Source: an uncultured virus (IMG/VR IMGVR_UViG_3300027747_004519)
Lineage: Duplodnaviria > Heunggongvirae > Uroviricota > Caudoviricetes
Length of the DNA stretch: 64,000 bases
Virus record (IMG/VR): IMGVR_UViG_3300027747_004519
Direction: 5' to 3' (one strand)
The position numbers and the translations under genes were made by a program. Below are positions 1 through 46,047 of the stretch, piece after piece; positions within the stretch are counted from its first letter, which is position 1; each line of letters starts with the position of its first letter. The notes beneath the pieces were generated by a model. The model did not search any database, was not told the DNA's origin, and was given only the letters and a program-made list of their open reading frames with translations.

Positions 1-10
1 GTAGAATACC

Positions 11-97
11 GGGGCTTCAATCAAAATACTACCGCCTAGCTTTAGGGCTGTGGCGACTAAGCTATTATAATCTGGCTTGTGTAGTATTGAGCTTTTT
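11..97 (+). ncRNA. Candidate structured small RNA, family 1 (bulged stalk plus two hairpins, C4/CI-like architecture)
   Basis: GGGGCTT(11-17)/GAGCTTT(89-95); 7-nt bulge; AATACTAC(25-32)/GTAGTATT(81-88); hairpins at 33-55 and 59-78; G-U pairs favour the + strand; TAGAAT at 2-7; T-run after. Confidence 0.5.
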
Positions 98-106
98 AAA
101 AAGAGT

Positions 107-148
107 AACCCGCCAGTTTAAGGATGCAATGCATAGCCTTGGCAGGTT
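107..148 (-). ncRNA. Candidate small RNA, family 2, copy A1
   Basis: Minus strand AACCTGCCA-AGG-CT-ATGC-att-GCAT-CCT-TAAAC-TGGCGGGTT; TGT-TATAAT about 10 nt upstream; T-run downstream. Confidence 0.5.
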
Positions 149-172
149 TTGTATGTTAATTATAACAAAACG

Positions 173-212
173 ACCCGACACTTTGAGGATGCTTAGCATA
201 GCCTTGTCGGGT
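173..212 (-). ncRNA. Candidate small RNA, family 2, copy B1
   Basis: Minus strand ACCCGACA-AGG-CT-ATGC-taa-GCAT-CCT-CAAAG-TGTCGGGT; TACAAT upstream; outer stem covaries with A1. Confidence 0.5.
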
Positions 213-345
213 TCTGTCTTTTGTATTGTAGCAAGGCTAAAGTTAGGACAAACCTATACCCTTTGCAAAACTTAACTTTTATGTTTTGACATCCTTTAGT
301 TATATTATAAATAATTTTATTGTTATAGGCAAATTTGTAGTATTG

Positions 346-421
346 GGCTAATCGTTTTGAATGCTTTCTGGTTCTAGCTGGATAGGACAGCCGATAATAA
401 TGTCGTTCAGCATAATTAGTT
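346..421 (+). ncRNA. Candidate structured small RNA, family 1, second member
   Basis: GGCTAAT(346-352)/ATTAGTT(415-421); 8-nt bulge CGTTTTGA; ATGCT/AGCAT; hairpins at 368-390 and 392-405. Same architecture as 11-97 but different sequence. Confidence 0.5.
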
Positions 422-437
422 GATTTTAAAAAAGAGT

Positions 438-479
438 AACCCGCCAGTTTGAGGATGCAATGCATAGCCTTGGCAGGTT
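438..479 (-). ncRNA. Candidate small RNA, family 2, copy A2
   Basis: Duplicate of A1 with bulge CAAAC. Confidence 0.5.
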
Positions 480-503
480 TTGTATGTTAATTATAACAAA
501 ACG

Positions 504-543
504 ACTCAACACTTTGAGGATGCTTAGCATAGCCTTGTCGGGT
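504..543 (-). ncRNA. Candidate small RNA, family 2, copy B2
   Basis: Duplicate of B1 with two substitutions in the outer stem. Confidence 0.45.
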
Positions 544-572
544 TCTGTCTTTTGTATTGTAGCTTAGCTTCA

Positions 573-720
573 AACATTCGCCCAATTAGCTCCGAACATT
601 TGCCCAATTAACTCCGAACATTTGCCCAATTAACTCCGAACATTTGCCCAATTAACTCCGAACATTTGCCCAATTAACTTCGAATATTTACTTAATTAAC
701 TCCGAACATTTGCCAGTTAA
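573..720. repeat. 22-bp tandem repeat AACATTTGCCCAATTAACTCCG, six copies plus a partial (iteron-like)
   Basis: Units start at 573, 595, 617, 639, 661, 683 and 705. Confidence 0.95.
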
Positions 721-1070
721 TCGCGATACTCACATCTTGTTATTTGTTCAATGTAATCTTTGTAACTCTGTGCAGTTTCTTCTTCGCAGTAAATTCGATA
801 ATCTTGCTCCGTTTTTTTAAGATTTTTTAATGTTTTTTTAACATATTCAATATCATTCCACTTAGAATCTTTAAATTCATTGATAATATTTTCTTGAAAA
901 TTTATCATTGCACATTTTTTGAGATAAAAATCATTAAAAAGTGTATTATCAAAACGGGCTACGGTTGAAACATAATCTATCCATTTATCAAAAAGGTCAA
1001 TAATTAATATTATTTGATCCTTAATTAAAGCTTGCTGTTGAAATAATTCTGTGTTTTTCATTTCCCTCAA
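717..1070 (-). CDS. Hypothetical protein
   Basis: 117-aa ORF overlapping the stop of the upstream gene. Confidence 0.6.
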   Translation of the reverse strand: MREMKNTELFQQQALIKDQIILIIDLFDKWIDYVSTVARFDNTLFNDFYLKKCAMINFQENIINEFKDSKWNDIEYVKKTLKNLKKTEQDYRIYCEEETAQSYKDYIEQITRCEYRD

Positions 1071-1405
1071 CTCTCCCAGTGATAACCAAAAATCTTGACG
1101 CCACCGGGGGCAAACGACATTAAAGCCAAGACGTAAGTCAGAAGAAAAAACATATCATTTGGGATATATTTCTCCTTTGGATCCTCTGACCCAAACATAA
1201 AGACATCGGCATAGTTGCAAATATATTCAGCTAGGCTAAGCTTTTTTTTTGAATTGTAGGGGTCTGAAAATTTCCGTTCGTTAATTTTGCTCAGACGCTC
1301 AAAATAACCATTGTCTGGATCACGTTCAAATTCTTGCTTGAACCTTTGAATTTGGATCTTGATTGCAATATTAAGTAGCTCGATTGTAGTAGGTATGGTG
1401 TGCAT
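1067..1405 (-). CDS. Hypothetical protein (likely start MHTIPT at 1405)
   Basis: ORF; the upstream in-frame part overlaps a structured leader. Confidence 0.6.
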   Translation of the reverse strand: MHTIPTTIELLNIAIKIQIQRFKQEFERDPDNGYFERLSKINERKFSDPYNSKKKLSLAEYICNYADVFMFGSEDPKEKYIPNDMFFLLTYVLALMSFAPGGVKIFGYHWES

Positions 1406-1512
1406 ATTTTGATTGATAAGACAAAGCCTGTGGGAGTTGCCAGACCACAGGCTCACAATAAGACAAAAAGGTAGGGAACTCTGGACTTGCATCCACCAAA
1501 TCAATATATCAA
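1406..1512 (-). promoter_or_regulatory. Extended -10 promoter and two-hairpin structured leader
   Basis: TGA-TATATT, then hairpin GGTGG..CTACC plus TTTTT, then hairpin AGCCTGTGG..CCACAGGCT. Confidence 0.4.
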
Positions 1513-10680: not shown

Positions 10681-11604
10681 TTAATCTAGTTTCAATGGTA
10701 ATTTTTTTGTGTAATTTCTTCGCACATATTGCTCGCAATTAAAGCAAAAAATGTTTAATTTGCCGCGAGATGCAGTTTCGAATCCTGAGCATTTTGGACA
10801 TTGCGCTTTAATATTAAATTTGAGTTTGCTGGGATCCTTGTGGCTATACATATTGCAATTTTTGCAGTACATGTAATCTTTGCCGTGTGATTTGGTATTG
10901 TGGCTAAAACACTTTGAGCATTGTAGGGCAGTTGAAGATTTAATTTTGCTGGGATCCTTGTGGCTATACTTATTGCAATCCCTGCAATGGATTTGATCTT
11001 TATTTATAAGTCTGGTATTGTGACTAGTGCATTTTGGACATTGTATTTTAGGTTTAATCCGGCTGGGGTTCCTTTGACTATGAGTATTGCAATCTTTGCA
11101 ATAGATTTGTATTCGACCGTCAAATCGGGTATTGTGACTATTGCATTTTGGACATTGCAGTGTGGTTTTAGATTTATGTTTGCTGGGATCCTTGTAATTG
11201 TACTTATTACAATCTTTGCAATATATGGAATTTTTGCCGTTTGATTTAGTATTGTGATTGGAGCATTTTGGGCATTGTATTGCAGGTTTTACTGCATGCT
11301 TTGGCTTTTCTTCCGTAATATATTTTTTGCAATCATGACAGTACATCCTAGGGTTTCCCGCGGTTGTCTCAGTATGCTTACGTGTGTGGGTACTTTGGCA
11401 ATCTGGGCAAGGTTTGCCAGGGGTAAAAGTAGGCAAACCAAGATTGCTAAGTTTTGCTGGAGGGGTAGACATCACTTGCAGATATCTCTCTCCAATGCCT
11501 GGCGCTTCATGCCCGTAGGTTTTCTCAAGATAAGCCACCATTTGAGCTATGGTTGGCTCTAGTAATAAATGTGTTTTTACGCTGCTGCGCTGTTTGGCAA
11601 CCAT
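10681..11604 (-). CDS. Protein with six InsA-like zinc-ribbon repeats
   Basis: Six CxxC..N/HT...CxxC units at about 40-aa period. Confidence 0.85.
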   Translation of the reverse strand: MVAKQRSSVKTHLLLEPTIAQMVAYLEKTYGHEAPGIGERYLQVMSTPPAKLSNLGLPTFTPGKPCPDCQSTHTRKHTETTAGNPRMYCHDCKKYITEEKPKHAVKPAIQCPKCSNHNTKSNGKNSIYCKDCNKYNYKDPSKHKSKTTLQCPKCNSHNTRFDGRIQIYCKDCNTHSQRNPSRIKPKIQCPKCTSHNTRLINKDQIHCRDCNKYSHKDPSKIKSSTALQCSKCFSHNTKSHGKDYMYCKNCNMYSHKDPSKLKFNIKAQCPKCSGFETASRGKLNIFCFNCEQYVRRNYTKKLPLKLD

Positions 11605-25115: not shown

Positions 25116-25826
25116 ATGAGCAATCTTACAGCTTTTGATTTTAACTCCAATCAAGTCCGCACAGTGTCTATTGAAGGACAACCTTGGTTTGTTGCCAAGG
25201 ATGTGTGCAATGCTTTGGACATTCTCAATACCAGTCAGGTTGTGTCCAAATTAGATGAAGACGAAAAGCTGCTATATCTAATGTATATAGCAGGTCAACA
25301 ACGAGAAACAGTTTTGGTTTCAGAATCCGGCATGTATTCTCTCGTTCTCAAATCTCGCAAACCCGAAGCCAAAGCCTTTAAGAAATGGATTACCGCAGTA
25401 GTGCTCCCCTCAATCCGTCAAACTGGAGGCTATCAAGTTGAGCCTCAAACCCCTAGGCAGTTGCCACCGGTAAGAGACGTAGTGGATTATGCCAAATCGC
25501 TGGCTGTAATAACCACTACTGCCATGCCAGCAGCACTCAAGCAAGCTTTCCTAGATCGCCTTGGGGATGAGATGATTACTACTAAAATCCCTGGGCAAAT
25601 AGCCACCGCACCTAGATTAGTAGGAGTAGTGCAAAAAGCAGAAGAGCTAGGCTACAAATTGGATCACAGTCAGAGGGTGCGGATTGGCAAATTAGTAAAA
25701 GACACTGGACTTTCATATACCAGAGAGGAAAGATATTGCAACGGGCAAATGCGACCGATCAATTGCTACGAGGACGGGCCCGAACTAGAAAGCGCAATAC
25801 ACAGTGTTTTTGCCCAACTGAACTAA
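25116..25826 (+). CDS. BRO-N domain antirepressor-like protein
   Basis: PWFVAKDVCNAL..VSESGMYSLVLKSRKPEAKAFKKWIT..VLPSIRQTGGY. Confidence 0.92.
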   Translation: MSNLTAFDFNSNQVRTVSIEGQPWFVAKDVCNALDILNTSQVVSKLDEDEKLLYLMYIAGQQRETVLVSESGMYSLVLKSRKPEAKAFKKWITAVVLPSIRQTGGYQVEPQTPRQLPPVRDVVDYAKSLAVITTTAMPAALKQAFLDRLGDEMITTKIPGQIATAPRLVGVVQKAEELGYKLDHSQRVRIGKLVKDTGLSYTREERYCNGQMRPINCYEDGPELESAIHSVFAQLN

Positions 25827-25845
25827 GCTATACTATACACAACAC

Positions 25846-25895
25846 AACTCACCCAGCTATGTCGCAATAGGTACCTGCAAACGGTGGGTTCTTTT
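25846..25895 (+). ncRNA. Candidate small RNA, family 2, distant member
   Basis: TATACT at 25829; AACTCACC-CAG-CTATG...CTG-CAAAC-GGTGGGTT-CTTTT, same architecture as copies at 107-543. Confidence 0.5.
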
Positions 25896-25988: not shown

Positions 25989-26255
25989 ATATGGAAACCT
26001 GATAAATCCGGCTGCTGGCGACAGAATATCTTATATATTCTATTTCAATACGATTACCGGTACGACACTCGATACGATTATCAATACAATATCCATACGG
26101 AAACCTGATGAATCCGGCTGCTATCGACAGAATATCTTATATATTCCCTTGTCGGTACGATTACCGGTACGATAACCCGTACAAATACCCGTACAGTATA
26201 TATACGAATTCCTGATAATTTCTGGCAAAATCGACAAAATATCTTATGTATTTCC
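25989..26255. repeat. Three about 52-bp imperfect repeats at 106-107-bp period, interspersed with about 12-bp TACGA units
   Basis: CCTGAT..CGACA(G/A)AATATCTTAT at 25998, 26104 and 26211. Confidence 0.85.
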
Positions 26256-27960: not shown

Positions 27961-28141
27961 ATTTAAAACAAAACCCTCTTGGGCAAAAGGGTTCAAAACA
28001 TTATTTAAAAGATGATATACCCCAAGAGGTATACACAAGTTTTATTTTATCGCAAAAACAAAACCCACCAATTTGTAGTTTTTGGAGGGTTCTTGAAATA
28101 ATAGGAGATCGCTCGATTATACCAATCAAACACCAAATCAA

Positions 28142-37336: not shown

Positions 37337-38062
37337 TTAAGATAAATCTCGATAATAGGGAAATTCGTTGATTAATTCTTGATAAACATCTGGGGAATCG
37401 CGTTTTAATTTAGCAACTCGCCCCCAGTTTGCGCCCAAAGTACCAAGCGCCGAACCATTTCTTGTGTTAGGGTCTAAATCGTATTGACTGGGATATTCCA
37501 ACTCGAACATATTAATGTAGTGCCATATATCCTGCGTTTTCCACCATCCGACTGGGCAACAATAAGTTAATCCCCTAGCTGGATATATTAAACCTCTAGA
37601 CCTTAAAGATTCGTATCTTCCTCTAGCTTCTTGCGCGCGCAAGCCCATAGCGACGCCTTTAATATTGTTGTTTTCTTGATATTCCTCCAGAGGATCATAG
37701 AAAATTGCAGATCTATTTGAAACTTTGTTGAATTGATTAAAATCGTCTCTTTGCCTGTGTGCGGTAAACCTAGAAATGATTGGACAAAGCTCTACTGCGT
37801 TTGGCATTTTGCGCACTATTTCAATTGATTCTGCCCAGTCTCCCAAATTTCCAAATTGCCCTTTATTTACCCACACGTTGGGACAATTTGGATAAATTGT
37901 GGTGATTAGGTGGCTAGTCACAATTGAATCTTTACCACCTGAAACCGAACAATAAACTTGATAATCACAAAGCTCTAGCCACTGCTTGATTAAATCTAGA
38001 GCTTTGTTGATTTTAGGCTTGAGCCAAGGGATTTGTAAGCCAGAGCCTTTGCTAAGAGGCAA
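37337..38062 (-). CDS. cysH: CysH-like (PAPS reductase family) protein of type IV-B CRISPR-Cas
   Basis: SVSGGKDS PP-loop, GLRAQEARGR, CCPVGWWKTQDIW; follows csf3. Confidence 0.88.
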   Translation of the reverse strand: MPLSKGSGLQIPWLKPKINKALDLIKQWLELCDYQVYCSVSGGKDSIVTSHLITTIYPNCPNVWVNKGQFGNLGDWAESIEIVRKMPNAVELCPIISRFTAHRQRDDFNQFNKVSNRSAIFYDPLEEYQENNNIKGVAMGLRAQEARGRYESLRSRGLIYPARGLTYCCPVGWWKTQDIWHYINMFELEYPSQYDLDPNTRNGSALGTLGANWGRVAKLKRDSPDVYQELINEFPYYRDLS

Positions 38063-38732
38063 GACAATTCTCCTGCTTAATATTCACGCTTGGTACCCAG
38101 CAAAGAGTTGTAGATTCGTGGTGCCAGCTTGGTAATTTCCAAGCTGCTAGTTGTTTGTGCTCAGGCAATTTAGGAGTAAATAGCTCTACTGGAACCGGTC
38201 GTCTAAGCCTGTTGTCTGGTCCAATTATTGACCAATCCCCTGGAATTTCTTGAGCAGTCCAGCTAGTAACCAAGCCATATCCTTGGCTGCGTTTTTTGCC
38301 TAGGTGAGTTACGTTTCTGAGCAATCTTAAAATTGTCTCTTGCTCTCCTACCACGAACCAGTCAATTCTACTAATCGTACGCAAAAAAAGTGGCATATCG
38401 TAAGACTTGAACTGCCCTTGACTTGTATCTACCTTGGCTTTCTTTTTGCCCCAGTCTAAGTGCCTATCCTGGTAGTCCCAGCGCTTACGAAAATTGACTT
38501 GCTCTTCTTTGCTGTAAAGATAGTGTGGAGAGCTACAGTGATAAAATCCCAATTTGTTTTTTAGTAGGGGTAAATCTATCTGTGTTATCTCTTCAAGTTT
38601 TTGTGGATTGGGATCTAGTAGCCCTAGTTCTTCTCTGAGCTTATATTCAATCAATCCTTCAATCGCTGGAGAAAGGCTGTCAGTAGTGGCTAAAGGTCGT
38701 GAAAGGTGCGCTGTAATTTGTAAAGGAGTCAT
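38052..38732 (-). CDS. csf3: Type IV CRISPR Csf3 (Cas5 group)
   Basis: PLQITAHL, GQFKSYDMP, WFVVG, HLGKKRSQGYGLV, RRPVP, PSWH. Confidence 0.9.
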   Translation of the reverse strand: MTPLQITAHLSRPLATTDSLSPAIEGLIEYKLREELGLLDPNPQKLEEITQIDLPLLKNKLGFYHCSSPHYLYSKEEQVNFRKRWDYQDRHLDWGKKKAKVDTSQGQFKSYDMPLFLRTISRIDWFVVGEQETILRLLRNVTHLGKKRSQGYGLVTSWTAQEIPGDWSIIGPDNRLRRPVPVELFTPKLPEHKQLAAWKLPSWHHESTTLCWVPSVNIKQENCLAS

Positions 38733-39886
38733 CCTAGTATACCTGCAATTTCGTTTGAATTTTGGTCTAAATATTGTTCGTATTCGTGAAGATATTGAAT
38801 ATACCTAGCCTGTTGTTTGGCTGAGCGCTCAGTCAAGGTATGTTTGCCTTCTTGTACCAGCATCCAATCCCCTGTTTCACCCTCACTGGAATAATAGATT
38901 TTAGCTGCAACCTTACCACAGCCTGTATTAGCTTGCCCACCAACATAAGGTGAATCTGCCCAAGCCAATATAGCCCGAGCAATAAACCCCTCCTCGACAT
39001 CTGTGATATATCCGTCCCACCGAGAATACAAAGTTGCGCCTTGCTGTATTAACCATGAACCCATAATCATCTGATTACTCTTGGGTTTTTCCTTTTTAGT
39101 TTCTCCAGAATCAAAGAGCGTTTGTTGAACTTTGCCGGCTGATGGTAAAAGGTGCTTTACCAAATTGGGGTCATGATGAGAATCCCGTCTGGTTTTTTGT
39201 ATATAGGTAAGCCAGTGTGGGTAGGGTCTAAGTTTTTGCTCTAAAAAGGGTAGCCAATATTTTAAGGTTTCCTTGTAATCTAAACCAGTACTGGTGGATT
39301 CCTTGCCAGATAAAAAAGCTTGCACTCGTTCTGCTTCTAAAGTCCTTTTGGCGTTTTCAATTTGAGTTAAAGCTTCAATTACTTCAACTGGCAAAGCTGG
39401 CTTAAAAGTATTAAAAATTGCTAATGCGCTTTCGTAGCAGACCAGCGCGGCATCACCCACATTGAGCCTACCGCCAATCATTTGGGCATCAGTAGCACCA
39501 AAAACCCCTTTAGGTTTGGCTGTTCCTAATAAAGAAATTGGTGGTAAGAATTGCCTAATTTTTTTATCTAATTCAAGATTATTAGAAGTCCCGCCATCAA
39601 GAGCGCCCCCACAAAAAAGTGCATGATGCAAAAGTGGATTTACTGTGATTTTTAGGCGAGAGAGCATATCGTCAATTCCCACTCTGCGCAATATTCTATT
39701 TCTCAATGAATTGCCGGATAAGCAGAATATAGGAGTAGGTTCACCTTCAATATCAGTAAGTGTGACCGTCCGCAAATTGGCTTGATTGCCCACGGTCTCG
39801 CCAATATGACTCAAAGGAGCTAAAGTTTCTAAGACAAGGTGAAAAGTAATGCGATGGCGCTTATCTGGATTGTAAGTACTAAACAT
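38729..39886 (-). CDS. csf2: Type IV CRISPR Csf2 (Cas7 group)
   Basis: PLSH, SGNSLR..LRR, LFCGGAL, PPISLLG, GRLNVG, TRRD, QMI, VGG..TGCG. Confidence 0.92.
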   Translation of the reverse strand: MFSTYNPDKRHRITFHLVLETLAPLSHIGETVGNQANLRTVTLTDIEGEPTPIFCLSGNSLRNRILRRVGIDDMLSRLKITVNPLLHHALFCGGALDGGTSNNLELDKKIRQFLPPISLLGTAKPKGVFGATDAQMIGGRLNVGDAALVCYESALAIFNTFKPALPVEVIEALTQIENAKRTLEAERVQAFLSGKESTSTGLDYKETLKYWLPFLEQKLRPYPHWLTYIQKTRRDSHHDPNLVKHLLPSAGKVQQTLFDSGETKKEKPKSNQMIMGSWLIQQGATLYSRWDGYITDVEEGFIARAILAWADSPYVGGQANTGCGKVAAKIYYSSEGETGDWMLVQEGKHTLTERSAKQQARYIQYLHEYEQYLDQNSNEIAGILG

Positions 39887-40394
39887 CGAAAGTGTCTCCT
39901 TGATTTTCTTGTGTATTGTTTTGCCAATTAAGCTTCTCTTCTTCGTGCTTGAGCCTCACGTATAGAGTTACTAGTTGAGGTCTATTTAAGCAAACCTTCA
40001 GAACGTGCCTTTCAGTAATTCCGTACTCAATGCGCCATTGGTGAATCAATTGCTCCCAATCTTGATAGGCTAAAGCTTGATCTTTGTTGAATTGTTGCAA
40101 ATCACCCAAGCTGCCATCTTCTGAAATAGCAGCTCTTAGGACAACCTGATTAGGTTGAACTATCTGGCGCCAGATATTGGGCTTGAGCGTAGGGACTGAA
40201 AGCTTGAGCGAAAGATTCACTAAATAGTCACTAAGGCTTCTTGAAGGTGTGGCAGCGTTTTGTATAGAAGACTGCATGTACTCCCAAGTTTTTAGCCCGT
40301 TTGCTGCTGAACTGGTATCTCGGCACCTAAAAACCCAATAGCTTAAAGCAGCAGCTAGTGAAGTAATCCTATCGTCTGTAGCAAATCCAAGCAT
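39879..40394 (-). CDS. Type IV-B small subunit (Cas11/Csf4-like)
   Basis: Helical 171-aa protein immediately upstream of csf2. Confidence 0.7.
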   Translation of the reverse strand: MLGFATDDRITSLAAALSYWVFRCRDTSSAANGLKTWEYMQSSIQNAATPSRSLSDYLVNLSLKLSVPTLKPNIWRQIVQPNQVVLRAAISEDGSLGDLQQFNKDQALAYQDWEQLIHQWRIEYGITERHVLKVCLNRPQLVTLYVRLKHEEEKLNWQNNTQENQGDTFDV

Positions 40395-40445
40395 ATTACT
40401 AGTATGGTTTGATTGATTTATATCAATATATCAATTACTAAAAAT

Positions 40446-41096
40446 ATGAATTTTTGCTATTTGTGTGGAGCTTCTGGCGCCACTAAATCACTAAGCTTAA
40501 AAGATAGCTTTACAGCTCACTCTAGGGCCAAAGTGCCAGAATCTAAGCTTTGGTGCGATAGGTGCGCTTGGGTAATTCCCATGCGCGTCAAGTATTACAA
40601 TCCCAATACCAAAAAGGAAGGGCTTTTATTTTCTCGCACCTTTAGCTGGCTGCTTTCCAACCAGCAATCCTATCCAATTTTTGAAGGTGATCGCGTGCAT
40701 ACTTTGCCCAATAGATCGCTAATCAGGCAGTGGCTTATAAATCCACCTGAGCCACCTTTTACAATTGCTATAGCTGAAAGTGGGCAAAAACATATTCTAT
40801 TTCTAGCCCAAGAAGCTCAAGAAAAAGATAGATTCCCTGTGCTTTTCGAATTGGATTTACTGGAAATTGATCGAGCTAAATTTACAGAAAATCTAGAGCA
40901 ATTTGAATTATTAATGAGCTGGGAGCTTACGAAGACAGAAATACTCAGCGGAAACTACAAATCACAAAACCTGCTCAAGCTTCACAGCAATCCTGAATTC
41001 TGGAAAGCAGAACAAGTCCTAGCACCAATTAGAGGAACTAGAGTTTTTGAATTAATTTCACACGTCGCTTGTAATAAGCAAGCAGAGATGGACTAA
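40446..41096 (+). CDS. csf1: Type IV CRISPR Csf1 (Cas8-like), divergently transcribed
   Basis: CYLCG..SFT..CDRC; NPPEPPFTIAIAESGQKH. Confidence 0.88.
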   Translation: MNFCYLCGASGATKSLSLKDSFTAHSRAKVPESKLWCDRCAWVIPMRVKYYNPNTKKEGLLFSRTFSWLLSNQQSYPIFEGDRVHTLPNRSLIRQWLINPPEPPFTIAIAESGQKHILFLAQEAQEKDRFPVLFELDLLEIDRAKFTENLEQFELLMSWELTKTEILSGNYKSQNLLKLHSNPEFWKAEQVLAPIRGTRVFELISHVACNKQAEMD

Positions 41097-41999: not shown

Positions 42000-42638
42000 T
42001 TAAAAAAACCAGCCTGCTCCAAAGTGTTTTCTTCCGCCCAAACCCTTTTGCTGCAAGGTTATTGAATCTTGCTCAGATAATCGAGAAGCAATCACGCCAA
42101 ATCCCAAAATTGCCCTATCATGGATCTTGAGCGAACTGACCCTAGTAAAATCCAGTCTTGCGGTAACGCCAATTGTCTCTAGCGCTTTATTGCATGTGTG
42201 CCAAAATTTATCAACCGGAGGATTGGCGTAGTCCCAAATCCCTGGTAATTTAAAAGTCACAATTCTAGCTTGCAACCTGCTTTTTGGCTCTATCTCCTTC
42301 AGTCCGGGATTAATTAATTTTATTTGGTGATTTCTGATATTTAGAATTTTACCTGCTAAAGCTTGCTGGTAATAGGCAGTGTCGCACCCTTTGGCTCTTA
42401 GCCTGAGCCTTGATCCGTCGTTGATTTTAATTAGTCCAGGTGGATCTGATTTGCCTGGGATTGAGCAGAGCAACGCATCCTCTGGTAAATCGCCAGCGAT
42501 TGCCTTGATTGCACTATATAGAGAAAATCCATTGTCTGCTGGCAAGGATGAGCCTGATACTTTAAATTCTAATTCTAGAAATTGCTCTAGCACAGAATCG
42601 GATTGTTTATTTCTTTCGGTAACTAAATTTGTAAGCAT
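42000..42638 (-). CDS. cas6: Cas6 endoribonuclease, I-MYXAN Cas6/Cmx6-like
   Basis: LPADNGFSLYSAI, SRLRLR, LAGK.L.I, L.ARIVTFK, LSEQDSI.LQ, G-loop GLGGRKHFGAGWF. Confidence 0.92.
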   Translation of the reverse strand: MLTNLVTERNKQSDSVLEQFLELEFKVSGSSLPADNGFSLYSAIKAIAGDLPEDALLCSIPGKSDPPGLIKINDGSRLRLRAKGCDTAYYQQALAGKILNIRNHQIKLINPGLKEIEPKSRLQARIVTFKLPGIWDYANPPVDKFWHTCNKALETIGVTARLDFTRVSSLKIHDRAILGFGVIASRLSEQDSITLQQKGLGGRKHFGAGWFF

Positions 42639-42640
42639 TA

Positions 42641-42775
42641 CTAGGTAAGGGTTTTGATTGATTCGTTTAGTGTTTTTAGTGCTTGAGCCATTGCCAATTT
42701 AGCCAGTTGGATGTCGACTTCGACTATCTCGCCAGCTTTGTTTTTAAGCAGTATTTTTTGCTTATTTTGTGCCAC
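42641..42775 (-). CDS. Small hypothetical protein (GTG start likely)
   Basis: GAGGAG ribosome-binding site before GTG GCA CAA. Confidence 0.45.
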   Translation of the reverse strand: MAQNKQKILLKNKAGEIVEVDIQLAKLAMAQALKTLNESIKTLT

Positions 42776-42941
42776 GGCGTAAGCTCCTCTCTTGGTTAAT
42801 CTGCTCAATTGTCCACAGTTGCAGACCTTGCTTGATTGCTTTTTGTCGCAATTCAACCAGCTCCTTTGCAAAATCTGATTGATAAGGGCTTAGCGCAGAA
42901 TTGGTTTGGTTATTTCTTTCGGGAACTAAATTTGTAAGCAT
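42762..42941 (-). CDS. 59-aa protein not in the ORF track; shares its first codons with cas6
   Basis: MLTNLVPERNNQ..FAKELVELRQKAIKQGLQLWTIEQINQERSLRRG. Confidence 0.6.
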   Translation of the reverse strand: MLTNLVPERNNQTNSALSPYQSDFAKELVELRQKAIKQGLQLWTIEQINQERSLRRGTK

Positions 42942-42956
42942 TACTAGGCAAGGGTT

Positions 42957-43280
42957 TTACGCAACGCCTTTGATTGTATCAGCAATTAAATTAAGCCAAT
43001 CTGGGCAGATCATATCCTCTGCCAATTGAAAAACTCTCCATCCGTGAACTAAATTGAGGTTGTGTTTTTCGTAGGATTTGAGCAAGCCAGATCCGCTAGT
43101 GTGCCTCGATTTGTGCCAAATTTGTCCTTCAATCTCTATCCCCACTTTGGTGGCAGTATGGGCAAAATCTAATCTAAATTTCCTGCCGGGAATTGATTTG
43201 ACCTCGCGCTCTAGGGCAATTTCTGGATAGAGCTCTCGCCAACTGCGCTCAAAATAATCCTCTAAGTGGGAGCTAGGCAT
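42957..43280 (-). CDS. Vsr/DUF559-like endonuclease
   Basis: RKFRLDFA..KVGIEIEG..H..GWRVF. Confidence 0.8.
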   Translation of the reverse strand: MPSSHLEDYFERSWRELYPEIALEREVKSIPGRKFRLDFAHTATKVGIEIEGQIWHKSRHTSGSGLLKSYEKHNLNLVHGWRVFQLAEDMICPDWLNLIADTIKGVA

Positions 43281-46047
43281 TAGTAATTTGCACCTCAGTA
43301 TAATTGCCGTAACCAGTGATTGAACTTTGCTGGTATATCCTAAAAAATTTATTGGCAACACTATTATTTAAATCGACTGATTGTTGAGCCTGAGTATAAA
43401 TAAAAGAATTGACATTGCTTACGTAATAGGTATTCACTAAAACCCTATTGGTTTGATTTTGAGCGTAAATCACCCAAACTTCAATTTTAAAAGCGCTGAT
43501 TTCTCCAGAAGCAAACCCAATATCAACATAGTCTAATAGACCGCCGTTTTGATATGTTCTCCTATACCAAGACAAGGTTATATCGCCGTTGCTAGCTTTA
43601 GTTTGCTTGACGCCTGTAACGTTGTATGGCGTGGCAGATTGAGCCTTATAGTTGATTGTCACAATATCTGTAATATCTGGTTCGGTTTGGTCATAAGGTA
43701 CAATTTTAAATTCTACGTTTTTGCCAATATCTCCTTGTTTTGTTGCAAGTTGAGTAACATTATTTAAAAGTATGGCGCTCTCTCCGACAACGTGAGTTCC
43801 TGTTAATCGTTCTGTCCCTTTTGCTCCTCTGATTAAATAAGAAATTTGATAAACATTATTTGGTTTAACCAGCACATCTCTAAAGGCTATAATCTCTTGC
43901 CCAATTAAAATTAAATTTTCCCCTGCCAAAAACGCGTCATCCGTGACAGATTCAAATATAGAATTTGGCGCGTAAATATCAATTCTTGTATAGGGGTCAA
44001 TTACTCCAGTTGGACCATTTGATATAGGAGTACTGTAAACAATTCCTGTAGCGCTGCTACCTTTGACCGTGATAGATTCATTAAAAGTCAAGCCATTGTC
44101 GGTAGAGACAAATACTGTTCCTGTGGAGAAATTGGAAACGCTCTCAACCGCAAAATATATTCCTAGAGGATTGTCTGAATTTTTCAATACTGGAATATCC
44201 AATACATGCAGAATGCCTTCAGTGTAAGAGCTGACATTAGAATATGGCTTAGCGACTTGGGGTGTGTAGTTGGAAACGACTTGTGTTATTGCGTAATAGT
44301 TATTATCGTTTCTAGGGTCATAACTGATTGTATTACTGTCGTTAAATCCTGGTGTTGTATCGCTTGTTTGTACTGTGGCGACTATTACTCCATGATCCCA
44401 ATCAAAAAGCGGAGACCCTTGGCTCCATAACGCTTGTGGTATTGCTAGTGGAGCATCTGGATAATTAATATAAATTGTGGGATCGCCAATAAAGCAACTG
44501 GTATTAAAAACAGGAACAGGGCTAGACTGTTGAAATTCAGGAACGTTGCTAACTTCGGGAAACCCCAGCGGGTTTTGTGAGTAACTACTATTAGGACCAA
44601 ATACTAAAGAAAAAACCCCGTCGCCTCTTTGTACTCCTTGATAAATTATTTGCAAATTGTCGGCATGCCCAACAAAGGGATGAGTAGTCCGAGTGTAGTA
44701 AACTACACTACCTGGAGGATAGGCATGCCCGTCGGACATAAAAATCCAACTGAGATTCCTAACCGCGATCCATACGAAAAAATTCTTGACAACAGAAACA
44801 ATAGGACTTAAATATTGATTGCCTTCAATCTGGCAAAGGTAATCAGCGCTCAGTAGCTTTTTAGTAATCTGCAATTGCACTACTCTTGATCCTATATTGA
44901 GCCCTATGACATCGCCTAGGTGCAACTTGGTATACCAGCAAGGCAGCAAATTTATTCCGCTAAAAGTATTGCGTTGTGAGGCTACCTCGCCAATAATCCG
45001 GTTTGCAAGCCCCTCCATAAAAGTAGGATTTGCCCAGGCTCTAGTCTGAATTGAAAGTGGATTGTTAGATTTAGCCAAGGGGTTACCTGCTGAAACTACC
45101 CACTGGCTATAGTTATCACCAAGGTTTCTAAAGCTGATTTGCACTTCGGAGGGCATCTCGCGCTTGTGTTGAATTTTCTCTTGGAACAGGTCTGGAGATT
45201 TGCCGGGGGTATTGCGAGCGCCCAGATTATTTAAAGCTAGGTTGAGCGATACAGATGGTCTGGTCTTTTGGAGCAGTTTAAAAACGCCATTTTCCTCTCT
45301 GTGAGTCAGGAAAAATAATCTACAAATCTCGTTTAAATAATCAGCGTAGGTTTCGCCTGTGCGCTGAAAAAGCAGTCCTTCAATCTGCTGTCCTGCTGGC
45401 ACATCTGATAAATCTAGCTTGTTTGTATCAAACCCTGCACTAGTAAAGATATCTTGGATTATTGACCTAATTGTGGGATTAGCTCCTCCCTTGCCGTAGA
45501 CAAGTACATCCACCTTGGGGAACCCCGCGCCATTAAAATCTGAAAGCGGATAACGATTAAAAGTGATATAGGATCTGCCTCTAAAAGCTGGTATCGCGTT
45601 ACCTTCAACAGAAGAAATTACAGAGGAAATTGGTTGATTTAGAGTCCCTAAAAAAACCTCACTATGTCGGACAAAATTAGCTGATTTTTTCTGAACAGTC
45701 TCTTTGCTGTAGACTTGCACTCCATTGCACCAAACGCACCTGAGATCGCTAATTTCTCCACCGATCATATAAGCGCAGGTCATATAGTACTTATAATCTC
45801 TTGTCCTAGCGCCAAACCCCTTACCTCCACCGCCATTTACAGTTTGGATTAAATTCTGCCCCCAGAACATTGAAAGTCCATCAATTCGGACGTGTCCATA
45901 TGATTGGGAAATTGGCGCCCCATATTCGGCAGTAGCCCTCAAAGCCAATGGGTCAAGCTTATTTTTATTTTGAATTGGAGTCAATAAATTAGCTATTAAA
46001 TTACCTACCAAGGAGGTAACAACTGGAATTACAATGGCTGTCGACAT
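43273..46047 (-). CDS. GTA-type baseplate/host-specificity tail protein (megatron-like)
   Basis: YGAPI..YGHVR, PAFRGRSYI, LIGQEIIAF..LIRGAKGTE, SWYRR. Confidence 0.85.
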   Translation of the reverse strand: MSTAIVIPVVTSLVGNLIANLLTPIQNKNKLDPLALRATAEYGAPISQSYGHVRIDGLSMFWGQNLIQTVNGGGGKGFGARTRDYKYYMTCAYMIGGEISDLRCVWCNGVQVYSKETVQKKSANFVRHSEVFLGTLNQPISSVISSVEGNAIPAFRGRSYITFNRYPLSDFNGAGFPKVDVLVYGKGGANPTIRSIIQDIFTSAGFDTNKLDLSDVPAGQQIEGLLFQRTGETYADYLNEICRLFFLTHREENGVFKLLQKTRPSVSLNLALNNLGARNTPGKSPDLFQEKIQHKREMPSEVQISFRNLGDNYSQWVVSAGNPLAKSNNPLSIQTRAWANPTFMEGLANRIIGEVASQRNTFSGINLLPCWYTKLHLGDVIGLNIGSRVVQLQITKKLLSADYLCQIEGNQYLSPIVSVVKNFFVWIAVRNLSWIFMSDGHAYPPGSVVYYTRTTHPFVGHADNLQIIYQGVQRGDGVFSLVFGPNSSYSQNPLGFPEVSNVPEFQQSSPVPVFNTSCFIGDPTIYINYPDAPLAIPQALWSQGSPLFDWDHGVIVATVQTSDTTPGFNDSNTISYDPRNDNNYYAITQVVSNYTPQVAKPYSNVSSYTEGILHVLDIPVLKNSDNPLGIYFAVESVSNFSTGTVFVSTDNGLTFNESITVKGSSATGIVYSTPISNGPTGVIDPYTRIDIYAPNSIFESVTDDAFLAGENLILIGQEIIAFRDVLVKPNNVYQISYLIRGAKGTERLTGTHVVGESAILLNNVTQLATKQGDIGKNVEFKIVPYDQTEPDITDIVTINYKAQSATPYNVTGVKQTKASNGDITLSWYRRTYQNGGLLDYVDIGFASGEISAFKIEVWVIYAQNQTNRVLVNTYYVSNVNSFIYTQAQQSVDLNNSVANKFFRIYQQSSITGYGNYTEVQITNA

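Follow-up and report, generated by a model that had tools for sequence, protein, structure and literature searches.

The left end of a 64,000 nt stretch of DNA from an uncultured tailed phage (IMG/VR record IMGVR_UViG_3300027747_004519; the whole stretch is called the window here) carries four bulged hairpins on its minus strand, and the question that they raise is which RNA they represent and what such an RNA might do for a phage. A first-pass annotation made from the letters of the DNA had described an RNA motif that is functional, specific to one strand and equipped with promoters of its own, a description that stands, and had left the motif unrecognized, which no longer applies: judged by sequence and predicted fold, the four hairpins are members of a known family, the abiF RNA (Rfam RF03085). 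In type III toxin-antitoxin systems, this RNA serves as the antitoxin that binds and blocks AbiF, a HEPN RNase (PMC12373285; this and the other articles cited below are drawn on in part), and AbiF/Abi_2 proteins are widespread abortive-infection defences that have recently been shown to be RNA-controlled HEPN toxins. Among the candidate roles put forward for the motif, the evidence favours that of an antitoxin mimic, and we propose, with a probability of roughly 55%, that the four hairpins are trans-acting decoys directed against a host AbiF and carried by the phage without the toxin. Both the abiF RNA family and its presence in phage genomes are already known; in the literature that we searched, outside which Zilberzwige-Tal 2025 lies, we found no account of toxin-less, promoter-equipped, multi-copy phage abiF RNAs acting as anti-AbiF decoys.

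The hairpins lie within a 140-nt direct repeat (window 93-232 and 424-563, 97% identical), each copy of which holds two units of approximately 65 nt, and the four units are 71-100% identical to one reference (repeat family D2). Read along the minus strand, their order is B2, A2, a 191-nt spacer, B1 and A1, i.e. two tandem B-A pairs. What had been counted as separate copies are two unit types, A and B (39/52 identical), each present twice through a single 331-nt duplication. From 5′ to 3′, each unit consists of a -10-like hexamer (TATAAT in A units and TACAAT in B units, with TGn preceding it in three of the four), an A/C-rich spacer of 12-13 nt, a 7-bp outer stem and a 3-bp AGG/CCU stem; the interior contains the conserved GGCUAUGC, a CU bulge and a 4-bp apical hairpin with a variable triloop, and the 3′ side a 5-nt bulge (CAAAC, UAAAC or CAAAG) followed by a U-rich tail. 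The layout originally described, from -10 box, A/C-rich leader, outer stem and 3-bp stem to inner hairpin and 5-nt bulge, was therefore correct.

The assignment to the family was approached with a covariance model and an Rfam search, both of which had been suggested at the outset, and the match to abiF appeared only below the gathering threshold. In short stretches searched at an E-value threshold, abiF was the top Rfam match in every listed copy, with bit scores of 25.9 for a copy from a podovirus-like contig (L013), 27.1 for a cellular copy linked to an Abi_2 gene (L081) and 29.8 for a copy from a cyanobacterial metagenome-assembled genome that is not so linked (L054), in addition to the scores for A2 and A1 given in Table 1; at gathering thresholds, Rfam gave no matches in the window and none in 11 related loci. 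That Rfam abiF is the best match for A2 and A1 supports the hairpins independently of our own covariance model, R1. The RF03085 consensus is 37 nt long (CCCGCCAAG, 13 nt, CUCAAAUCGGCGGGU), and its features were found by cmscan at 439-477(-) and 108-146(-), namely the 6-bp CCCGCC/GGCGGG stem, the AAG...CU inner stem and the 3′ bulge CAAAU, whereas the apical hairpin of the window copies is longer than that of the consensus (15 compared with 13 nt). All four window copies can be aligned with Abi_2-linked copies, and A2 is identical at 47 of 53 positions (89%) to the Abi_2-linked cyanobacterial copy L097, the nearest cellular relatives of the B units being proteobacterial copies (43/52 identical). 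The tail of the A units, UUACUCUUUU, is identical in the Abi_2-linked L097 and L001. The lead to this family came from a distant blastn search of plasmids, in which the one match, of 58 nt, lies on a Picosynechococcus plasmid; an ‘Abi family protein’ gene follows on the same strand after approximately 75 nt. A phage collection searched by blastn with window 60-740 yielded nothing. The idea of a tRNA-like or tmRNA piece was rejected, ARAGORN having found none in the window or in 14 loci.

The units resemble the abiF RNA (also called AbiFr or RCd22) in their consensus (CCCGCC-AAG...CU-CAAAY-GGCGGG), their single-stranded bulge on the 3′ side, their own promoter and their U-rich tail. RCd22 of C. 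difficile, in which two abiF motifs lie 19 nt apart, binds AbiF directly and neutralizes it in cis and in trans (PMC12373285), and the tandem pairs of the window resemble its two-motif arrangement. In contrast with abiF RNA systems, the window has no abiF/Abi_2 gene, carries four copies, each with its own -10 box, and gives Rfam scores below the cut-off.

In cells, the motif keeps company with Abi_2. The hairpin was found 10-75 nt upstream, on the same strand, of Abi_2 (PF07751) in 7/7 open reading frames (ORFs) tested, with E-values of 5e-51 to 4e-60, the loci concerned (L001, L040, L077, L081, L097, L099 and L101) being cellular or plasmid-borne. A looser pattern without the outer stem matched 52 places in a set with one genome from each of 185,579 species, only five of which have a fully pairing outer stem, and three of these five, which come from an alphaproteobacterium, a gammaproteobacterium and another proteobacterium, are followed by an ORF that begins approximately 20-25 nt past the U-rich tail. 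In cyanobacteria, six R1 matches reached at least 50 bits; three of them lie 10-13 nt before an Abi_2 ORF, and in the remaining three cases the next feature is a gene for a type I restriction specificity subunit, an ORF without a Pfam match at E <= 0.01, or nothing recognizable. We also note that a Methylase_S gene (type I restriction specificity subunit, E 6e-9) follows the hairpin of L098 (cyanobacterial genome G085), and a short open-ended ORF without a Pfam family at E <= 0.01 that of L095/L054 (genome G008); orphan abiF-type copies in cells possibly sit in defence islands.

The usual layout of an AbiF-type type III toxin-antitoxin locus, with the RNA gene followed by the toxin gene in one operon, is not present in the window. 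The window ends 92 nt past A1, and a metagenome contig (L105), 100% identical to window 1-666 (L105 1-666 corresponding to window 666-1), continues for 4.6 kb leftward past this edge. In this contig, A1 is followed by approximately 80 nt, a GC-rich hairpin with a U-run, a 63-amino-acid ORF on the opposite strand and a tape-measure-like gene of more than 1,420 amino acids, and no Abi_2 gene was found downstream of the hairpins in either the window or the L105 extension. A hidden Markov model (HMM) of the seven linked Abi_2 proteins gave no matches at E <= 10 in all six frames of 77 viral loci (280,671 nt) and of the whole window, with both positive controls recovered at E < 1e-140. PF07751 was likewise found in 0/7 phage records (G001-G007), among which G001 and G002 are relatives of the window and G003 is 100% complete with terminal repeats. 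For the window group, the test of the orphan state covers the 64-kb window, L105 and G002 (96% complete); neither G001, which begins at window base 5, nor G002, which breaks off within the repeat, reaches past the window. An open minus-strand frame at the left edge (…KPDYNSLVATALKLGGSILIEAPVFY) was considered as an Abi_2 N-terminus and rejected, as the likeness is only loose, the frame has no ATG, GTG or TTG start and stops five codons past the window in L105, and the Abi_2 HMM gave nothing there.

The same state is found in other phages. A viral scan with a 32-nt string from the window gave no match, and a metagenome scan yielded L105-L107. A degenerate hairpin pattern recovered 31 viral loci, approximately 27 of them with the whole motif and with differing outer stems and loops, and of the 40 viral loci recovered with a looser pattern, 30 have the true motif, none of them with an Abi_2-like ORF after it. 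The motif is toxin-less in several unrelated phage groups, one member being a complete 40-kb genome. Besides the window group, the motif-bearing phages comprise podovirus-like contigs of approximately 40 kb, in which the major capsid gene immediately precedes it, a 68-kb contig of low GC content (L025), contigs of 29-44 kb (L009/L020) and a 77.6-kb viral contig (L143) in which it precedes a tRNA-like sequence. The ~40-kb contigs were considered as T7-like cyanopodoviruses, and this was rejected, as the capsid is only 27-30% identical to those of Pelagibacter, Pseudomonas and other podophages. Two features of the flanks were also noted. In L143 and L014, a sequence resembling the 5′ part of a tRNA (…GTAGCTCA…GGTAGAGC…) lies within approximately 10-130 nt after the abiF-type hairpin. 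The podovirus-like contigs (L002, L003, L005, L013, L027 and others) have two repeated modules within 130 nt of the motif. The first consists of GTGGTGTGAC and, after it, a stem of 4-6 bp that always carries a GAGAGA loop and covaries in approximately ten examples inspected by eye; the second is an unvarying word, GCGACACCTGC. A search of one locus, L013, gave no Rfam family for either module, and they may be phage promoters, terminators or processing sites.

The fold is conserved beyond the letters. In a covariation set of 35 hits (34 distinct rows), the outer stem is 97.5% paired in the model-fitted alignment and 92.6% in an unfitted MAFFT alignment. Four of the six outer-stem pairs change on both sides, as in CCCGCC/GGCGGG compared with CAUUGCC/GGCAAUG (L143), and the 3-bp stem is invariant across the aligned copies. 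The observed covariation score was reached by none of 500 column shuffles, and all slid registers drop to 31-60% paired. As many as 24 of 26 distinct apical segments fold into a hairpin of 3-6 bp with differing loops, and the internal-loop letters AAGGCUA and CCUCAAA are invariant across phyla. The earlier statement that the outer stems differ but stay paired holds in general and fails for B2, where CCCGACA faces UGUUGAG with one G-U pair and one C-A mismatch. Many of the pairs are G-U, and because these become A-C on the other strand, the element is read from the window minus strand as RNA and not as double-stranded DNA; the C-A mismatch of the plus strand is, as had been observed, U-G on the minus strand in the A copies.

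This asymmetry bears directly on the possibility that the hairpins act at the DNA level, in a replication origin or a packaging site, where together with the adjacent 22-bp iterons they would form cruciforms or single-strand hairpins for a phage protein to bind. The hairpins do adjoin 6.5 tandem 22-bp repeats and lie at a point where three assemblies break, and the anti-AbiF element of phage sk1 maps to its cos site (PMC13064643). However, the pairing differs between the strands (G-U compared with A-C), and the motif also precedes chromosomal Abi_2 genes and occurs in other phages without iterons, and we regard a DNA element as decidedly improbable.

With respect to expression signals, 7/7 copies of the window group and 9/11 cellular copies have a TAnnnT hexamer at a distance of 12-14 nt before the outer stem. 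At the 3′ ends, the A tails have UUAC before the U-run, a terminator scan gave no sites in window 1-1500, and the B tails (UCGUUUUGUU), which start 1 nt past the stem, fit a terminator by eye. One explanation would make the hairpins mainly terminators or 3′-end stabilizers, of the leftward PhoH operon in the window and of the capsid transcript in the podovirus-like phages, their likeness to abiF reflecting descent without an anti-toxin role. Such a function would suit GC-rich hairpins with U-rich tails, particularly those of the B units, as well as the 12 podovirus-like copies that lie just downstream of the capsid gene without a -10 box, and cellular abiF RNA also gives premature termination upstream of abiF (PMC12373285). 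It sits poorly with the empty terminator scan and with the UUAC of the A tails; a plain terminator needs neither four copies with their own -10 boxes nor internal-loop letters that are invariant across phyla, and a separate canonical hairpin with a U-run stands approximately 80 nt further downstream. We consider a mainly terminator-like role unlikely.

Near-identical relatives differ in copy number: the window has two pairs, L107 a single B-A pair without the 331-nt duplication, and G002 one hybrid unit (B 5′ arm and A 3′ arm) followed by the spacer and the contig end at the next promoter. The relatives' contigs show eight substitutions within the repeats, none of them in a stem or bulge, which is a hint only as the cover is partial; they fall in the apical loops (130 and 460), the promoter-to-stem spacers (155, 214, 218 and 219), a -10 box (228, giving TATAAT) and downstream (97). 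These changes bear on whether the hairpins could be functionless relics of a decayed phage AbiF locus once used for superinfection exclusion. AbiF systems occur in prophages, as in C. difficile (PMC12373285), B2 has a destabilizing mismatch and the region is recombinogenic, all of which would suit decay. On the other side, the promoter, both internal loops and the tail are kept in all four copies, the substitutions avoid stems and bulges, no Abi_2 remnant is detectable in six frames, and the lack of the toxin is shared by several phage groups that are unrelated to each other, a complete genome among them. We judge the relic explanation to be improbable.

Antitoxin mimicry is the reading that we prefer. 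It is built on points that are established directly: the family to which the RNA belongs, its strand and fold, a promoter spacing that is conserved, the association with Abi_2 in cells and the absence of that gene from the phages. From these we infer that the phage hairpins are expressed, bind AbiF and have an anti-defence effect. Two features of an antitoxin mimic are found, i.e. close likeness to a host-type RNA antitoxin without the toxin, and a copy number that shifts between related phages. In the mechanism that we envisage, the RNAs would be made early by host RNA polymerase from host-type (sigma-70-type -10) promoters, the products being single-hairpin RNAs of approximately 55 nt and, by read-through, tandem B-A RNAs of approximately 120 nt. 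They would fill the RNA-binding groove of the host AbiF dimer via the conserved single-stranded CAAAC bulge, so that AbiF would stay inhibited after synthesis of the host's labile antitoxin stops and abortive infection would fail. The A and B unit types might be matched to the two RNA sites of the dimer or to two variants of the host AbiF. AbiF is a homodimer with two RNAs (PMC12373285), and single-stranded bulge bases of the antitoxin RNA block the HEPN active site (PMC12737573); by analogy, the CAAAY bulge is the likely counterpart of this inhibitory bulge.

There are known systems with which this proposal can be compared. Pectobacterium phage PhiTE evades ToxIN through expanded pseudo-antitoxin repeats (PMC3475682), and its pseudo-ToxI, like the window hairpins, is a phage-borne, toxin-less look-alike of a type III antitoxin whose repeat number varies between close phages. 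The two differ in target, which is ToxN for PhiTE and would be a HEPN AbiF for the window, and in form, as ToxI consists of 36-nt pseudoknot repeats cut by the toxin whereas the window units are stand-alone hairpins with their own promoters; anti-defence activity has been demonstrated for PhiTE and is presumed for the window hairpins. RNA anti-CRISPRs (Racrs) are also viral, solitary, repeat-like RNAs that mimic the RNA partner of a defence nuclease, but they mimic CRISPR repeats and act on Cas proteins, whereas the window hairpins match an antitoxin and are accompanied by no array or matching repeat (PMC10651486). Given that AbiF is described as ancestral to Cas13 (PMC12737573), the hairpins, if they act by mimicry, would be the toxin-antitoxin counterpart of the Racrs. 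The cos-site hairpin of phage sk1, which is likewise phage-borne, is reported to inhibit AbiF (PMC13064643, citing Rince 2000 and Zilberzwige-Tal 2025); it is stated to bear no resemblance to the AbiF non-coding RNA, of which the window hairpins are close copies. Lastly, Rfam places abiF in three bacteriophage genomes, and the cyanophage S-CREM1 resembles the window in having an abiF RNA by this measure; unlike the window, S-CREM1 is T4-like and has a single copy, discussed as a possible regulator of host metabolism with no link to AbiF or anti-defence in the part of that article drawn on here (PMC9964418).

A broader claim, to which we give somewhat less than even odds, is that toxin-less abiF RNAs form a widespread and unremarked class of RNA anti-defence genes in unrelated phages, neutralizing host AbiF/Abi_2 HEPN toxins by mimicry. 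The class would comprise Nostocales-type siphoviruses, the ~40-kb podovirus-like phages, with expression at the end of the capsid transcript, and others, and the changes in copy number would mark a running arms race. If active, the toxin-less phage abiF RNAs would be natural, ready-made RNA inhibitors of the AbiF/Abi_2 toxin family and the second clear case of RNA antitoxin mimicry after PhiTE, and an orphan abiF motif would be a genomic marker for phages that escape AbiF and for hosts that carry it.

Several observations weigh against antitoxin mimicry and temper the probability that we give it. None of the five Rfam abiF scores reaches the gathering score of 37, and abiF was listed for neither B unit; since the Abi_2-linked L081 also fails, the cut-off misses the whole branch and does not single out the window copies. 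The model R1 (22 sequences) was built partly from the window's own copies, and the alignment of the covariation set was fitted to the model. At E <= 0.001, R1 has matches in only eight of 151 sampled cyanobacterial genomes, which offers few candidates for a matching host AbiF, the E-values being rough because of the calibration of a short model. Some cellular copies (L054/L095, L076, L098 and L100) have no Abi_2 downstream, and for this reason abiF-type RNA may have uses other than the control of AbiF. The TAnnnT hexamer is found in only one of the 12 podovirus-like copies, in which the motif is placed just after the capsid gene, and this placement also fits a terminator or a 3′ stabilizer. 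At least one window copy, B2, with its C-A mismatch in the outer stem, may be decaying. Finally, no RNA run is listed among those that contain window 1-760.

The features of the hairpin region are collected in Table 1. The GC-rich hairpin at the left edge of the window is the probable terminator closing the RNA cassette. The 22-bp repeats at the other end, which have fewer copies in the relatives G002 and L107, may be part of the cassette, replication-origin iterons or a regulator-binding array.

Table 1. Features of the hairpin region at the left end of the window, in minus-strand order for the four units (R1, covariance model of this study)
Feature	Position	Strand	Remarks
6.5 tandem 22-bp repeats, unit AACATTTGCCCAATTAACTCCG	573..714	.	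Immediately precede the B2 promoter (RNA strand)
B2 -10 box TACAAT	556..561	-	13 nt upstream of the outer stem
B2 abiF-type hairpin	505..542	-	R1 match 495-546(-), 61.2 bits; fold
B2 tail UCGUUUUGUU	495..504	-	Terminator-like; overlaps the TGn of the A2 extended -10
A2 -10 box TATAAT	490..495	-	TGn upstream (extended -10); 12 nt from the outer stem
A2 abiF-type hairpin	440..477	-	Rfam abiF 439-477(-), 24.8 bits; R1 72.5 bits
A2 tail UUACUCUUUU	430..439	-	
Non-coding spacer between the B-A pairs, 191 nt	233..423	.	Promoter-like sites on both strands; absent from relative L107
B1 -10 box TACAAT with TGn	225..230	-	TATAAT in relatives (G228A)
B1 abiF-type hairpin	174..211	-	Outer stem CCCGACA/UGUCGGG fully paired; R1 68.2 bits; fold
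B1 tail UCGUUUUGUU	164..173	-	
A1 -10 box TATAAT with TGn	159..164	-	
A1 abiF-type hairpin	109..146	-	Rfam abiF 108-146(-), 22.8 bits; R1 68.8 bits
A1 tail UUACUCUUUU	99..108	-	
GC-rich hairpin, 5′ half	1..18	-	Completed just past the window edge (L105 640-700), then UCUUGUUUG

The source phage is a freshwater siphovirus. By Pfam and PADLOC, the window encodes PhoH, both ribonucleotide reductase subunits, a prim-pol, a DNA polymerase III beta clamp, the large terminase, Bro-N, tail and baseplate proteins, Cas4 and Cas6, and is that of a tailed phage; its large terminase is nearest to those of siphophages of Nodularia (42% identity) and Cylindrospermopsis, and the DNA runs that contain the stretch are labelled as freshwater, aquatic or plain metagenomes. 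A type IV Csf set on the minus strand consists of Csf3/Cas5 (38055-38732), Csf2/Cas7 (38732-39886) and Cas11 (39882-40394), with Csf1/Cas8 at 40413-41093 (+), Cas6 at 42003-42638 and a PAPS-reductase-like gene at 37340-38062; Csf2 and Cas6 are also found in the relative G002. The presence of these genes (Csf1, Cas11, Csf2, Csf3, Cas6 and the PAPS-reductase-like protein) in a window in which no CRISPR array was found would leave room for the hairpins as guide-like or decoy RNAs of the phage's own Csf complex or Cas6, and a Cas6/Csf substrate was among the roles first suggested. We find this highly improbable: Csf2 and Cas6 are both absent from four other motif-bearing phage records and both present in only 1/5, the consistent cellular partner of the motif is Abi_2, and the hairpins lie approximately 38 kb from the Csf genes. 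With regard to Cas6 itself, a 68-nt direct repeat (42588-42655 and 42891-42958, 91% identical) has one copy overlapping its 5′ end and the other approximately 300 nt upstream, beside a 134-amino-acid ORF (42957-43361).

The first-pass annotation had counted five copies of the motif, of which the four on the minus strand stand and the fifth, at 25846-25890(+), does not (R1 10.7 bits, E approximately 1, and no Rfam abiF match). The stop codon of the Bro-N ORF (25116-25826) lies 20 nt before this hairpin, after which comes UUCUUUUGUG, and we take the hairpin to be the terminator of the Bro-N gene. Downstream of Bro-N and this terminator-like hairpin, at 25989-26255, lie approximately 2.4 copies of a 107-nt repeat with embedded 12-nt repeats like GTACGATTACCC. 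Between two minus-strand ORFs, at 28054-28093(-), ACCCUCCAA/UUGGUGGGU form a plain hairpin of 9 bp that has a U-run and, approximately 30 nt upstream, a TATAAT box. Its outer stem and flanks resemble those of the abiF units; as a member of the family it was rejected, with an R1 score of 21.3 bits and the inner motif missing. In addition, a tandem repeat of 114-120 nt, in approximately 3.5-5 copies, occupies 10768-11290 inside a zinc-ribbon ORF (10684-11604(-)) and is a repeated Cys-rich protein module.

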